From: an uncultured Eubacteriales bacterium
Lineage (GTDB): Bacteria; Bacillota; Clostridia; Christensenellales; Aristaeellaceae
DNA: 32,000 nt
Direction of reading: 5' to 3'
Assembly (NCBI GenBank): GCA_902781945.1
Contig: CACZLE010000029.1
Coordinates: forward strand, 26,395-58,394
The notes under the pieces were generated by a model. The model saw only the letters and a list, made by a program, of their open reading frames with translations. It had not been told where the DNA came from and did not search any database. Made by a program: the position numbers and the translations under genes. Below are positions 837 through 4,760 of the stretch, in pieces (within the stretch, counting starts at the first letter, position 1; the number at the start of each line of letters is the position of its first letter).

Positions 837-865
837 TTGACACCGCCGCATAACTATGCTACAAT
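837..865 (+). promoter_or_regulatory. Sigma-A type promoter for the leader ORF and ABC exporter operon
   Basis: -35 TTGACA at 837-842, 17-nt spacer, extended -10 TGcTACAAT at 857-865. Sits directly after the pfkA stop. Confidence 0.6.
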
Positions 866-907
866 CCAAACGTTTCCAAAGTAAACTTTCAGAAAGGAGG
901 CTGCGCC

Positions 908-976
908 ATGACCATGATCATCAAATTTGCAATCGCACGGGTGAACTATGCCTGCGCGCAGCCGCCTGCCAGATAA
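908..976 (+). CDS. 22-codon leader peptide ORF (MTMIIKFAIARVNYACAQPPAR), below the ORF-track size cutoff
   Basis: GGAGG at 896-900 lies 7 nt before ATG 908; stop TAA 974-976. It sits between the promoter and an intrinsic terminator upstream of the ABC genes. Confidence 0.5.
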   Translation: MTMIIKFAIARVNYACAQPPAR

Positions 977-999
977 AGCCGGTTTATTGACCGGTGAAG

Positions 1000-1036
1000 A
1001 AGGCCGTCTGCGTTTTGGGCGCGGACGGCCTTTTTG
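1000..1036 (+). terminator. Intrinsic terminator / attenuator between the leader ORF and the ABC exporter
   Basis: AAGGCCGTCTGCG (1000-1012) pairs with CGCGGACGGCCTT (1020-1032). This gives about 13 bp with a 7-nt loop, followed by TTTTT (1031-1035). It lies 37 nt upstream of ATG 1073. Confidence 0.65.
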
Positions 1037-1072
1037 CGTGTCTGTTTTTAGGAAAGGAATGGGAAAATCGAT

Positions 1073-2881
1073 ATGCATTCGAGAAGACTCCGCCTGATGG
1101 GGCGGCTGATCGCCCGGAACCGGGGCTTGTTTTCCGGGGCGGCCCTGTGCACCCTGGCGGCGGTGACGGCGGATTACTGCACACCCCTGCTGCTGGCGGA
1201 AACGCTGGATCATTACCTCAGCGGTCTGCCCAGCGCCATGCCCGCCTTCGTCAACCGCTGGGTGGACGCCCTGGGCGGACCGGAATACATGGCCCGTCAT
1301 CTGTGGATCGTGGGCTTGCTGCTGGTGGCCCTGAGCTGTCTCAGCGGCCTGAGCAATTTTCTGCGGGGCCGCTGGCAAAGCCAGGCGGGCGAAAACGTGG
1401 CCCGGGATCTGCGCAGTCAGCTGTACGACCATATCCAGCGCCTGCCCTTCAGCTACCACGTGAAGGCGGAAACGGGCGATCTGGTGCAGCGCTGCACCAG
1501 CGACGTGGACACCGTGCGCAAATTTCTGATCAACCAGCTCATGTCCATCCTGAGCGCCATCCTGATGATCGCGGTGGCCCTGACGGTGCTGTTGCGGCGC
1601 AACGCCCGCCTGGCCCTGTACAGCATGATCATGGTGCCCGGGCTCTTCCTCTTCGCCTACCTGTTCTTCAAATGGGTGGTGAAGGCCTTCCAGGCATCCG
1701 ACAAGGCCGAGGGCGCCATGAGCGCCGTTTTGCAGGAAAACCTGACCGGCGTGCGGGTGGTGCGGGCCTTTGGGCGGCAGCGGTACGAGGTGGAAAAATT
1801 CAAGGAAAAGAGCCTGGATTTCAAGGAAAAGACCTATCGCCTGTGCCGGCTGCTCAATGTCTATTGGTCGGTGAGCGACGGCATGAGCATGCTGCAAAGC
1901 TGCCTCACCCTGGCCGTGTGCGTGATCTTCGCCGTTCGGGGCGAAATCACCGTGGGCACGCTGGTGGTGTTCACCAGCTTCATCGGAAAACTGCTGTGGC
2001 CCATCCGGCAGTTGGGCCGCATCCTCAGCGACGCGGGCAAGAGCTTCGTCTCCCTGGAGCGCATCGACGAGATCCTGCGCCAGCCCGTGGAGCCCGAGGA
2101 GCCGGAGGCCGTCAAGCCTCCGCTCCATGGCGACATCGTGTTCGATCACGTGTCCTTTGGTTATGACGGCCAGCGGGACGTGCTGCGCGATATGAGCTTC
2201 ACCATCCCCGCGGGCAAGACCGTGGCCATCTTAGGTGCCACCGGCAGCGGCAAGAGCAGCGTGGTGCACCTGCTGCAGCGCCTGTTCGCGCCCCGGTCCG
2301 GCAGCATCACCATTGGCGGCGTGGACATACAGACCATTGACCGCAGCTACCTGCGCAGCCACGTGGGCCTGGTGCTCCAGGAGCCCTTCCTGTACAGCAA
2401 GACCCTGCGGGACAACGTGGGCATCGCCCTGCGGGAGCCGGAGGCCGCCGCCATCGAGCAGGCCGCCCGGGACGCCGCTGCCCTGGGGTTCATCCTGGAC
2501 AGCGAAAGCGGCTGGGATACCCTGGTGGGCGAGCGGGGCGTGACCCTGAGCGGCGGTCAGAAGCAGCGCATCGCCATCGCCCGCACGCTGATGAAGGACA
2601 ACGACATTCTGATCTTTGACGATTCCCTGTCCGCCGTGGATACCGAAACCGACGCGGAGATCCGCCGTGCCCTGAAGGAGCGCGGCAAAGATACCACCAC
2701 CATCATCATCAGCCACCGCATCGTCACCCTGTCCCAGGCCGATCTGATCCTGGTGATGGAGGATGGCCGGGTGACCCAGCAGGGCACCCACCGGGAGCTG
2801 ATCGCGAAGGACGGCCTGTACAGCCGGATCTTCAACATCCAGACCGCCCTGGAAGCGGAATTCCAGGAGGAGGTGAACTGA
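1073..2881 (+). CDS. ABC exporter permease/ATPase fusion, subunit 1 (degenerate catalytic site)
   Basis: 602 aa with an N-terminal 6-TM exporter domain. Walker A GATGSGKSS, signature LSGGQKQRIAIAR. Walker B is ILIFDD, with Asp (2621-2623) where the catalytic Glu is expected. Confidence 0.9.
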   Translation: MHSRRLRLMGRLIARNRGLFSGAALCTLAAVTADYCTPLLLAETLDHYLSGLPSAMPAFVNRWVDALGGPEYMARHLWIVGLLLVALSCLSGLSNFLRGRWQSQAGENVARDLRSQLYDHIQRLPFSYHVKAETGDLVQRCTSDVDTVRKFLINQLMSILSAILMIAVALTVLLRRNARLALYSMIMVPGLFLFAYLFFKWVVKAFQASDKAEGAMSAVLQENLTGVRVVRAFGRQRYEVEKFKEKSLDFKEKTYRLCRLLNVYWSVSDGMSMLQSCLTLAVCVIFAVRGEITVGTLVVFTSFIGKLLWPIRQLGRILSDAGKSFVSLERIDEILRQPVEPEEPEAVKPPLHGDIVFDHVSFGYDGQRDVLRDMSFTIPAGKTVAILGATGSGKSSVVHLLQRLFAPRSGSITIGGVDIQTIDRSYLRSHVGLVLQEPFLYSKTLRDNVGIALREPEAAAIEQAARDAAALGFILDSESGWDTLVGERGVTLSGGQKQRIAIARTLMKDNDILIFDDSLSAVDTETDAEIRRALKERGKDTTTIIISHRIVTLSQADLILVMEDGRVTQQGTHRELIAKDGLYSRIFNIQTALEAEFQEEVN

Positions 2882-2882
2882 A

Positions 2883-4760
2883 TTGCAGCAGGAAAAGGAT
2901 TATACCCAGAAATTTGACCTGTCGCTGTGGCGAAAGCTGCTGCGCTACGCCCCGCGATACAAAAAGCACCTGGCGGCGCTGGCCTTCTTCATGGGCGTCA
3001 ACGCCCTGATCGACGTGGCCTTTCCCCTGCTTACCAGCTACGCCATCGACCACCTGATCACCGATAACGGAGCCGCCCCCACCTTCTTCATGTCCCGGGC
3101 GGTGGAGATCGCGCAAAAGCTGCTCCATTGCCCGCCGCTGACGGCCTTCATCGTGCTCTACGTGCTGCTGGTGGCGCTGTCCGTGGCCACGATTTACGTG
3201 TTCCTCTATCTGGGCAGCGTCATCGAGGTGGGCGTATGCTACGAGATCCGCAGCCAGGGCTTCCAGAAATTGCAGGAATTGCCCTTCAGCTACTATGACC
3301 GCATGCCCGTGGGCTATCTGATGAGCCGCATGACCAGCGATATCCAGCGCCTGGCCGAGACCATCGGCTGGAGCCTGCTGGACCTGTGCTGGGGCGTGGT
3401 GATGCTGCTGATGTGCTCGGCTACCATGCTGTCCATCAATTGGAAGCTGGGCCTGGCCGTGATGCTGGTGCTGCCGCCCCTGGGCGTCATTTCCGTATGG
3501 TTCGAGCGGCGCATCCTCAAGGCCTGGCGCAGCGTGCGCAAGACCAACAGCCGCATCACCGGCGCGTTCAACGAGGGCATCATGGGAGCCAAGACCACCA
3601 AGACCCTGGTGCGCGAGGAAATGAACATGGAGGAATTCAGCGGCATGGCCCAGGAAATGCGCAAGTCCTCCGTCCGCGCCGCCTCCCTCAACGCCCTGTA
3701 TCTGCCCATCGTCATCTCCCTGGGCTCCATGGCCACCGCCTGGGCCCTGTGGCAGGGCGGCAGCCAGGTTCTGACGGGCGCCATGAGCCTGGGCGTATTG
3801 CAGGTGTTTGTCAATTACACGGTGCAGTTCTTCGAGCCCGTGCGCAACATCGCGGGCGTGTTCAGCGAAATGCAGAGCGCCCAGGCCGCCGCCGAACGGG
3901 TGATGACGCTGCTGGAAACCGCCCCGGACATCGTGGACAGCCCCGAGGTGATCGCGGAATTCGGCGACGCCTTCCATCCCAAAAAAGAAAACTGGCCCGA
4001 GATCCGCGGGGATATCGATTTTGAGCACGTGGATTTCAGGTATCAGGAGGGCGAGCAGGTTTTGAAGGATTTTAACCTGCGCGTGAAGGCCGGGGAGACC
4101 ATCGCCCTGGTGGGCCCCACCGGCGCAGGCAAATCCACGGTGGTCAATCTGATGTGCCGTTTCTACGAGCCCACGGCGGGCGAAATCAAAATCGACGGGG
4201 TGGATTACCGGAAACGGAGCCAGCTGTGGCTGCAATCGAATCTGGGCTACGTGCTTCAGGAGCCGCGGCTGTTCAGCGGCACCATCCGCGACAACATCCG
4301 CTACGGCAAACTGGACGCCACCGACGAGGAGATCCGCCGCGCGGCCCAGCTGGTCAACGCCGAGCCCTTCATCCTGCGCATGGAAAAGGGCTACGATACC
4401 GACGTGGGCGAGGGCGGCAGCCGCCTGTCCACCGGCGAAAAGCAGCTGATCTCCTTCGCCCGGGCCATCCTGGCCGATCCGCGCATCTTCGTGCTGGACG
4501 AGGCCACCTCCTCCGTGGACACCGAAACCGAGGTCGTCATCCAGAACGCCATCGCCCGGGTGCTCTCGGGCCGCACCTCCTTCATCATCGCCCACCGTCT
4601 GTCCACCGTCCGCGCCGCGGACCGCATCCTGGTCATCGAGGACGGACAGATCCGCGAAATGGGCGCCCATCGTGAGCTGCTGCGGCAGAAGGGCGCTTAC
4701 TACAAGCTGTACATGAGCCAGTTCGAGGAGGAACGGGCGCAGGAGATTCTGGGAAGCTGA
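2883..4760 (+). CDS. ABC exporter permease/ATPase fusion, subunit 2 (consensus catalytic site, deviant signature)
   Basis: TTG start at 2883, 9 nt after AGGAGGAGG (2865-2873) and 1 nt after the subunit-1 stop. Walker A GPTGAGKST; Walker B FVLDE (Glu at 4500-4502); signature LSTGE (4425-4439) instead of LSGGQ. Confidence 0.9.
   Translation: MQQEKDYTQKFDLSLWRKLLRYAPRYKKHLAALAFFMGVNALIDVAFPLLTSYAIDHLITDNGAAPTFFMSRAVEIAQKLLHCPPLTAFIVLYVLLVALSVATIYVFLYLGSVIEVGVCYEIRSQGFQKLQELPFSYYDRMPVGYLMSRMTSDIQRLAETIGWSLLDLCWGVVMLLMCSATMLSINWKLGLAVMLVLPPLGVISVWFERRILKAWRSVRKTNSRITGAFNEGIMGAKTTKTLVREEMNMEEFSGMAQEMRKSSVRAASLNALYLPIVISLGSMATAWALWQGGSQVLTGAMSLGVLQVFVNYTVQFFEPVRNIAGVFSEMQSAQAAAERVMTLLETAPDIVDSPEVIAEFGDAFHPKKENWPEIRGDIDFEHVDFRYQEGEQVLKDFNLRVKAGETIALVGPTGAGKSTVVNLMCRFYEPTAGEIKIDGVDYRKRSQLWLQSNLGYVLQEPRLFSGTIRDNIRYGKLDATDEEIRRAAQLVNAEPFILRMEKGYDTDVGEGGSRLSTGEKQLISFARAILADPRIFVLDEATSSVDTETEVVIQNAIARVLSGRTSFIIAHRLSTVRAADRILVIEDGQIREMGAHRELLRQKGAYYKLYMSQFEEERAQEILGS

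Follow-up and report, generated by a model that had tools for sequence, protein, structure and literature searches.

The locus described here lies in a 32,000-nucleotide (nt) stretch of contig CACZLE010000029.1 (assembly GCA_902781945.1, positions 26,395 to 58,394 of the forward strand) from an uncultured Eubacteriales bacterium, hereafter called the window. It consists of two adjacent genes for ATP-binding cassette (ABC) half-transporters, ABC1 and ABC2, and of the 235-nt leader that precedes them. The leader combines a promoter, a small open reading frame (ORF) and an intrinsic terminator, and its putative role as an attenuator of the transporter genes is the subject of this study. The gene upstream encodes a 6-phosphofructokinase (pfkA), whose stop at 827 comes right before the promoter at 837. 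The features of the locus, in window positions, are as follows.

837 to 865, plus strand: sigma-70-type promoter with an extended -10 element (TTGACA at 837-842, a spacer of 17 nt, TACAAT at 860-865, TG at 857-858).
892 to 910, plus strand: region 1, the leader ribosome-binding site (RBS) GAAAGGAGGCTGCGCC with the start codon, predicted 5' strand of the anti-antiterminator (from motif conservation, duplex prediction and RNAalifold).
908 to 976, plus strand: leader ORF of 22 codons, product MTMIIKFAIARVNYACAQPPAR, TAA stop at 974-976, spanning region 1 through region 2.
952 to 971, plus strand: region 2, the anti-Shine-Dalgarno (anti-SD) segment CTGCGCGCAGCCGCCTGCCA within the 3' end (last third) of the ORF, predicted to pair with region 1 or region 3.
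978 to 995, plus strand: hairpin P2, 7 base pairs, adjoining the ORF stop; folding places it at the region 2:region 3 antiterminator apex.
1002 to 1017, plus strand: region 3, the terminator 5' arm and loop GGCCGTCTGCGTTTTG, predicted other partner of region 2 (from duplex energy and the invariant arm).
1018 to 1035, plus strand: region 4, the terminator 3' arm GGCGCGGACGGCC with the T-run at 1031-1035 (from folding).
1073 to 2881, plus strand: ABC1 half-transporter, 602 amino acids (aa), ABC_membrane and ABC_tran domains, degenerate Walker B/catalytic site and canonical LSGGQ.
2883 to 4760, plus strand: ABC2 half-transporter, 625 aa, TTG start, ABC_membrane and ABC_tran domains, consensus catalytic Glu and deviant signature LSTGE.

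The promoter matches the consensus at 11 of 12 positions and has the TG element, and promoters of the TTGACA...TATACT type stand at the same position in orthologous loci. The leader SD is GAAAGGAGG at 892-900, with GGAGG at 896-900, 7 nt before the ATG at 908. The ORF stops 25 nt upstream of the terminator stem, whose core, GGCCGTCTGCG/CGCGGACGGCC at 1002-1030, is lengthened by A-U pairs to 997-1035, and from the terminator end to the ATG of ABC1 (1073) there are 37 nt. An earlier reading of the same DNA from its letters alone (the sequence-only reading) had proposed a near-consensus promoter, an SD and the 22-codon ORF, all of which were found where it placed them; the small hairpin at 978-995 and the GC-rich terminator with a T-run that it described 37 nt before the ABC gene were confirmed by folding. 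The leader as a whole (872-1075) folds with -79.4 kcal/mol, a z score of -4.7 against dinucleotide shuffles. Hairpin P2 may, judging from its predicted fold, act as an RNA polymerase pause hairpin. In the minimum free energy fold of 872-1075, the 5' untranslated region at 873-890 (UUUCC, CUUUC) also pairs with the purine-rich RBS region of ABC1 at 1052-1066; a brief look at other loci gave no apparent conservation of this pairing. A cmscan of positions 700-1300 against Rfam (E <= 10) returned only two chance-level snoRNA matches.

For the comparative analysis, about 90 orthologous ABC1 loci were collected, and 50 non-redundant leaders were chosen by the presence of the SD motif GGAGGCYGY 150-330 nt upstream of ABC1. 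All counts out of 50 given below refer to this set, in which relatives are not independent of each other and at least nine groups have ORF interiors that cannot be aligned. The nearest relatives are uncultured rumen and gut Clostridia, represented by metagenome-assembled genomes (MAGs) labelled Clostridiales, Aristaeellaceae, Candidatus Egerieenecus and Christensenellales; ABC1 orthologues that carry the leader share 71-93% aa identity within the genus and 46-72% in more distant Clostridia MAGs. The order of the elements is the same in all 50 leaders, namely promoter, GAAAGGAGGCYGC, start codon, variable ORF, conserved anti-SD, stop, hairpin and terminator. The family SD consensus is GAAAGGAGGC(T/C)GC, in which GGAGGCYGY is invariant or nearly so, and close to the 3' end of the ORF stands a conserved segment GC(A/G)GCCGCC. 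A hairpin at the position of P2 is present in the orthologous leaders, with variable sequence. Beyond the strict motif, a terminator precedes ABC1 in 36 of another 41 orthologous loci, and in 25 of those 36 an SD-preceded ORF ends 5-50 nt before it, the few automatic calls longer than 50 aa being doubtful.

The leader accompanies the ABC genes into loci with differing upstream genes, and the genome from which the window comes (a 2.9-Mb assembly of 109 contigs) has one copy. When a loose pattern (AAGGAGGCYGY...GCRGCC...TTTTT) was run on 401 genomes of the order, with the reversed pattern as control, matches outside the family stayed at the level of the control, and the leader-like matches all lay directly upstream of ABC1 homologues, one of them in another family and at 46% identity. 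The leader arrangement exceeds chance, because the layout recurs before ABC1 orthologues in dozens of species-level genomes. As a side observation, three loci of the same genus (L010-L012) have a spacer of 150-170 nt after the terminator, in which, some 40 nt ahead of the start of ABC1, a hairpin GGACAAA...TTTGTCC encloses the ABC1 SD GAAGGGAAG. By analogy, this hairpin could be an extra translational block like SL-4 of the Bacillus subtilis vmlR leader (see below); around the ABC1 SD of the window it has no counterpart.

The ORF is kept open in all of these leaders while its sequence changes. With region 2 located independently of the reading frame, through its complementarity to the leader RBS, the SD-proximal frame is open through region 2 in 50/50 leaders, compared with 4/50 and 29/50 for the other two frames and with 18.5 on average, and no more than 29, of 50 when the ORF interiors were shuffled. 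Loss of the small ORF in relatives, which the sequence-only reading had named as speaking against itself, was not encountered in this set. The start codon is ATG in 47 leaders and lies 7-8 nt after GGAGG in 45, the length ranges from 18 to 40 codons, and the interior cannot be aligned between clades. The stop codon always falls 4-42 nt past region 2, and from it to the terminal hairpin there are 4-51 nt. Region 2 itself is translated in all three frames (22, 14 and 10 leaders) and accordingly yields different residues: AQPP in the window and most of the genus, RSRL in two genomes of the genus, and CGRL, LRPP and others in distant clades. Because the ORF is open throughout although sequence, length and frame vary, the conserved features are, on this comparison of sequences, the RNA pairing and the act of translation, not the peptide.

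These observations bear on two explanations that start from the peptide. In the first, the leader senses a specific deficiency, either through EF-P-dependent Pro-Pro stalling at QPP or through amino-acid starvation as in biosynthetic attenuators. The C-terminal part of the window peptide is indeed AQPPAR, and QPP occurs in most leaders of the genus; however, the three frames across region 2 (AQPP, RSRL/CGRL, others) and a composition in which no residue is strikingly enriched among the leader peptides argue against it, stalling on QPP would place a ribosome over region 2 and promote termination, not read-through, and the controlled genes are exporters and not biosynthetic. We hold such a sensor to be highly improbable. 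The Pro-Pro tail as a conserved stalling peptide was rejected, since the frame across region 2 differs by lineage and the tail is then a by-product of one frame. The tail pointed out in the sequence-only reading is present in the window, but it is not kept as a peptide feature across lineages.

In the second, the ORF encodes a functional micropeptide, either exported or regulating the pump, and the terminator sets the ratio of peptide to pump mRNA. A small gene and a leaky terminator before ABC exporter genes form a known layout of bacteriocin operons. Here, however, the peptides of 18-40 aa are variable in sequence and have their C-terminal part in three frames, a double-glycine leader is lacking, as is a C39 peptidase domain in the exporters, and the leader peptide of the window had no match in Pfam. 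A micropeptide or bacteriocin precursor was therefore rejected as a candidate, the peptides being variable and without a family match, and we consider this explanation exceedingly improbable.

Some local regularities of the peptides were seen nonetheless and are given as side observations. A loose N-terminal pattern, M-[T/F]-[M/N]-[I/N]-[N/R]-R-V, is found in the window (908-925) and in L002-L100, and 24 of the 71 non-redundant leaders have Met at codon 3, with beginnings such as MTMI (window), MTMIN and MFMIN; the upstream ORF (uORF) of vmlR encodes MIN. The N-terminal codons are A/U-rich within a GC-rich genome, which may provide an unstructured initiation region or a context for an early stall. 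In addition, one clade (L069-L091, about 59-61% identity, including Faecalibacterium sp. CAG:74) has a conserved peptide, MFMINxxxTMTLMTAPSAFVRLR, with an R-L-R (+x+) motif just ahead of the stop, unlike the peptide-variable leaders of the clade of the window.

The main conserved feature, which is absent from the sequence-only reading, is a predicted helix between region 1, which comprises the leader SD and its start codon, and region 2 at the ORF 3' end; this helix would act as an anti-antiterminator. The duplex energy is -24.3 kcal/mol for the window and ranges from -15 to -26 kcal/mol across the family. In an anchored block alignment, 74.9% of the cells of regions 1 and 2 are paired, against 39-56% with the partners slid, and the mean energy is -22 to -23 kcal/mol for cognate duplexes, compared with -16 to -17 kcal/mol for cross-clade combinations. 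Compensatory changes are seen in alignment A1 at columns 13/41 (CG in 32, UA in 12) and 16/38 (AU in 22, GC in 12, GU in 10), and RNAalifold on 12 leaders of the genus recovered both this helix and the terminator.

A long conserved helix followed by a terminator could also belong to an RNA that works independently of translation, either by binding a ligand or protein or as a constitutive partial terminator that also ends the pfkA transcript, the ORF being incidental. It would fit this explanation that pfkA, ending at 827, lacks its own terminator ahead of the promoter at 837, and that the peptide sequence is not conserved. It would not fit that the ORF is open in every leader, with a strong SD at optimal spacing and mostly ATG starts, despite interiors that cannot be aligned; that the leader moves with the ABC genes among loci with different upstream genes; that the region 1:region 2 helix has an interior of variable length and sequence, unlike a ligand pocket; or that the Rfam search described above gave no match. 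We regard a translation-independent element as very unlikely. Concerning pfkA itself, the lack of a terminator between 827 and 837 means that the leader terminator (1002-1035) would stop read-through from this gene; loci L005, L007 and L008 likewise have pfkA as their upstream neighbor, and L002 does not.

The alternative partner of region 2 is region 3, within the terminator. The sequence-only reading had noted that CGCAG (957-961) can pair with CTGCG (1008-1012) as a possible antiterminator; this pairing was confirmed and is the core of a larger predicted region 2:region 3 helix, which is energetically enriched across the family. Its mean duplex energy is -15.9 kcal/mol, compared with -7.2 kcal/mol for ORF-interior windows of equal length and -9.9 kcal/mol for shuffled region 2, and in 37 of the 50 loci at most 5 of 100 shuffles are as good. 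Furthermore, the terminator 5' arm is CGTCTGC without exception in the genus (12/12 genomes), while the 3'-arm positions that face it vary between G and A, as would be expected from a second constraint on the 5' arm. Once formed, the region 2:region 3 helix encloses hairpin P2.

How these pairings would respond to a ribosome was modelled with constrained folds of all 50 leaders, in which a ribosome state was represented by blocking its footprint and cutting the transcript before region 4. At full length and with no ribosome, region 1:region 2 forms in 45/50, region 2:region 3 in 0/50 and the terminator in 48/50. With the footprint on the start codon and the transcript cut, region 1:region 2 is lost (0/50) and region 2:region 3 appears in 42/50, rising to 47/50 if the ORF is blocked up to region 2. 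With the ribosome at the stop codon and the transcript cut, region 1:region 2 is found in 23/50 and region 2:region 3 in 1/50. The folding check that the sequence-only reading had suggested, with and without masking of the ORF, therefore gives the terminator for the unmasked leader and the antiterminator for a ribosome near the start, in the window as in the family.

Taken together, the leader is probably a ribosome-dependent transcription attenuator with four pairing regions and a logic of three states. In the first state, with no ribosome, regions 1 and 2 would pair and close the leader RBS, and regions 3 and 4 would terminate transcription at about 1036. In the second, under unhindered translation, the ribosome would cross region 2 and rest at the stop codon (974-976), covering region 2, and the terminator would again form. 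In the third, a ribosome held at or soon after the start would make region 1 unavailable, and region 2 would pair with region 3 around P2; no terminator would form, and RNA polymerase would proceed into both ABC genes. In the window, just 41 nt of loop separate region 1 from region 2, so that a ribosome anywhere in the ORF upstream of region 2 should block their pairing. Such a switch would read the position of the ribosome and not the sequence of the peptide. Its natural signal is likely to be slowed initiation or elongation, for instance by ribosome-targeting antibiotics; we regard slowed translation as the likeliest signal because of the analogy with bmrB-bmrCD and vmlR and because the proposed switch is independent of the peptide. 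By the same analogy, the pump is most likely switched on by ribosome stalling. We infer that the leader is translated and that the terminator is used in the living cell, and likewise the kinetic sequence of events and the nature of the inducer. The core of the sequence-only reading, in which leader ORF and terminator form a ribosome-mediated attenuator of an asymmetric ABC exporter, is supported at the sequence level by the conservation of the ORF and by the enrichment of region 2:region 3.

The same structures would also serve a translation-gated attenuator without a drug signal, in which any translating ribosome opens region 1:region 2 and gives read-through, so that the operon follows initiation capacity or growth state. 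The sequestered RBS in 45/50 ribosome-free folds agrees with this, and in Bacillota transcription and translation are often uncoupled, which weakens the state in which a ribosome at the stop gives termination. Nevertheless, the stop is consistently placed just past region 2 and before the terminator, and the ORF always crosses region 2, whatever its frame. This placement and extent find no easy explanation if it is immaterial whether a ribosome covers region 2, and in the folds a ribosome at the stop abolishes region 2:region 3 in 49/50. We judge such gating without stall sensing to be unlikely.

Several points weigh against the three-state attenuator and have to be set beside the evidence for it. 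Bacillota RNA polymerase can outrun the ribosome, which makes the state in which efficient translation gives termination uncertain. The covariation between regions 1 and 2 reflects mostly few evolutionary events, chiefly the genus of the window against the rest. For region 2:region 3, the window duplex has -15.6 kcal/mol and is equalled by 7 of 100 shuffles, the advantage of cognate over cross-clade pairs is only 1.3-4.6 kcal/mol, and locus-specific covariation in the flanks is not significant (3.56 vs 3.39 ± 0.15 pairs). Of the compensatory changes for which the sequence-only reading had suggested a comparative alignment, those in region 1:region 2 were found, but those in the flanks of region 2:region 3 did not reach significance, and the case for the antiterminator is built on its energetic enrichment, on complementarity that is conserved and on the invariant 5' arm. 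The antiterminator is thus supported, although backed less firmly than region 1:region 2. Moreover, the terminator core (-23 kcal/mol) is more stable than region 2:region 3 in the window, and antitermination must therefore be kinetic.

The genes downstream of the leader encode, on the evidence of their domains, the asymmetry of their motifs and their structural relatives TmrAB, BmrCD and TM288, a heterodimeric exporter with one degenerate ATP site. In ABC1, the Walker B motif ILIFDD (2606-2623, with FDD at 2615-2623) has Asp in place of the catalytic Glu, and the signature LSGGQ (2546-2560) is canonical; ABC2 has IFVLDE (4485-4502, with LDE at 4494-4502) and LSTGE (4425-4439). This asymmetry and the single degenerate site had been read from the sequence before, and the motifs lie at the positions then given. 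Among bacterial PDB entries, the best matches are TmrB (5mkk_B, 2.3e-91) and BmrC (7m33_C, 7.7e-89) for ABC1, and TmrA (5mkk_A, 2.9e-114), TM288 and BmrD (7m33_D, 1.3e-98) for ABC2. TmrAB thus scores slightly above BmrCD, so that orthology of the pair to BmrCD is not established, and neither protein reached an equivalog cut-off in NCBIfam; drug export is a putative function. As in the heterodimeric type IV ABC exporters TmrAB, BmrCD and TM287/288, the half-transporter genes are adjacent, with the catalytic Glu replaced by Asp in subunit 1 and a deviant signature in subunit 2. The apparent TTG start of ABC2 at 2883 lies 1 nt past the ABC1 stop, with GGAGGAGG within the end of ABC1, which suggests that the two genes are translationally coupled.

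In the wider setting, the leader would be an uncatalogued case of an already known type of control, attenuation through a leader ORF, conserved in uncultured gut and rumen Clostridia. A broader proposal is that it defines an undescribed and widely conserved cis-regulatory RNA family, in which the RBS is the anti-antiterminator strand, the ORF crosses the switch in any frame, and a peptide-agnostic off/on/off stall sensor lets translation inhibitors of many classes induce an ABC pump of the multidrug type; to this we give about an even chance. If the attenuator model holds, many uncultured gut and rumen Clostridia hold an efflux operon induced purely by the position of the ribosome on a short leader, which would bear on the response of anaerobic communities in the gut to antibiotics that target the ribosome, and a clean and comparatively well-supported RNA family, for which Rfam has no model, would be added to the leader-peptide attenuators. 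The independence of the ORF frame across region 2 separates constraint at the RNA level from constraint at the peptide level unusually clearly. The general picture drawn from bmrB-bmrCD, vmlR and Term-seq surveys is unchanged.

Among known systems, the attenuator of the Escherichia coli trp type has mutually exclusive 1:2, 2:3 and 3:4 pairings, and it terminates transcription both without translation and with unhindered translation. The leader described here likewise has four regions whose predicted pairings are mutually exclusive. Unlike in trp, region 1 is the RBS and not a stretch of regulatory codons, no diagnostic codons are present, and the stop lies after region 2 and not between regions 1 and 2.

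In terms of gene context, the closest parallel is bmrB-bmrCD of B. subtilis, where a short translated ORF and an intrinsic terminator stand between the promoter and the genes of a heterodimeric ABC exporter, and where an anti-antiterminator, an antiterminator and a terminator have been predicted, all within the 54-codon ORF (nt 60-162) (Reilman et al. 2014, PMC4191407). In that system the ribosome is the sensor, the antiterminator is weaker than the terminator, a kinetic decision has been proposed, and induction was shown with lincomycin, chloramphenicol and erythromycin (PMC4191407). Gene context, predicted alternative structures, an antiterminator weaker than the terminator and an exporter with one degenerate ATP site recur at the locus of the window. 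The analogy drawn in the sequence-only reading, of the same logic with an unrelated peptide, thus appears sound as regards gene context and the principle of attenuation. The leader peptides are indeed unrelated; in contrast to bmrB, the 22-codon ORF ends 25 nt upstream of the terminator (in the family, 4-51 nt separate the stop from the terminal hairpin), and the 5' strand of the anti-antiterminator would be the leader's own SD and start codon.

As to the layout of the RNA, the nearest match is the vmlR leader of B. subtilis, whose anti-antiterminator hairpin includes the uORF start and is followed by another hairpin, at the antiterminator apex, and by an intrinsic terminator; a ribosome at or near the start codon blocks the base of the first hairpin, and the antiterminator forms (Takada et al. 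2022, PMC9226507). Its uORF has three codons (MIN), its SD is single-stranded ahead of SL-1, its downstream gene encodes an ABC-F ribosome-protection protein, and a NusG-dependent pause as well as the SD-sequestering SL-4 have been demonstrated (PMC9226507). The predicted structure of the leader in the window matches this layout in its start-bearing anti-antiterminator, apex hairpin and terminator. It differs from vmlR in that the ORF of 18-40 codons spans the whole helix, the SD is paired within that helix, and the genes downstream are membrane exporters.

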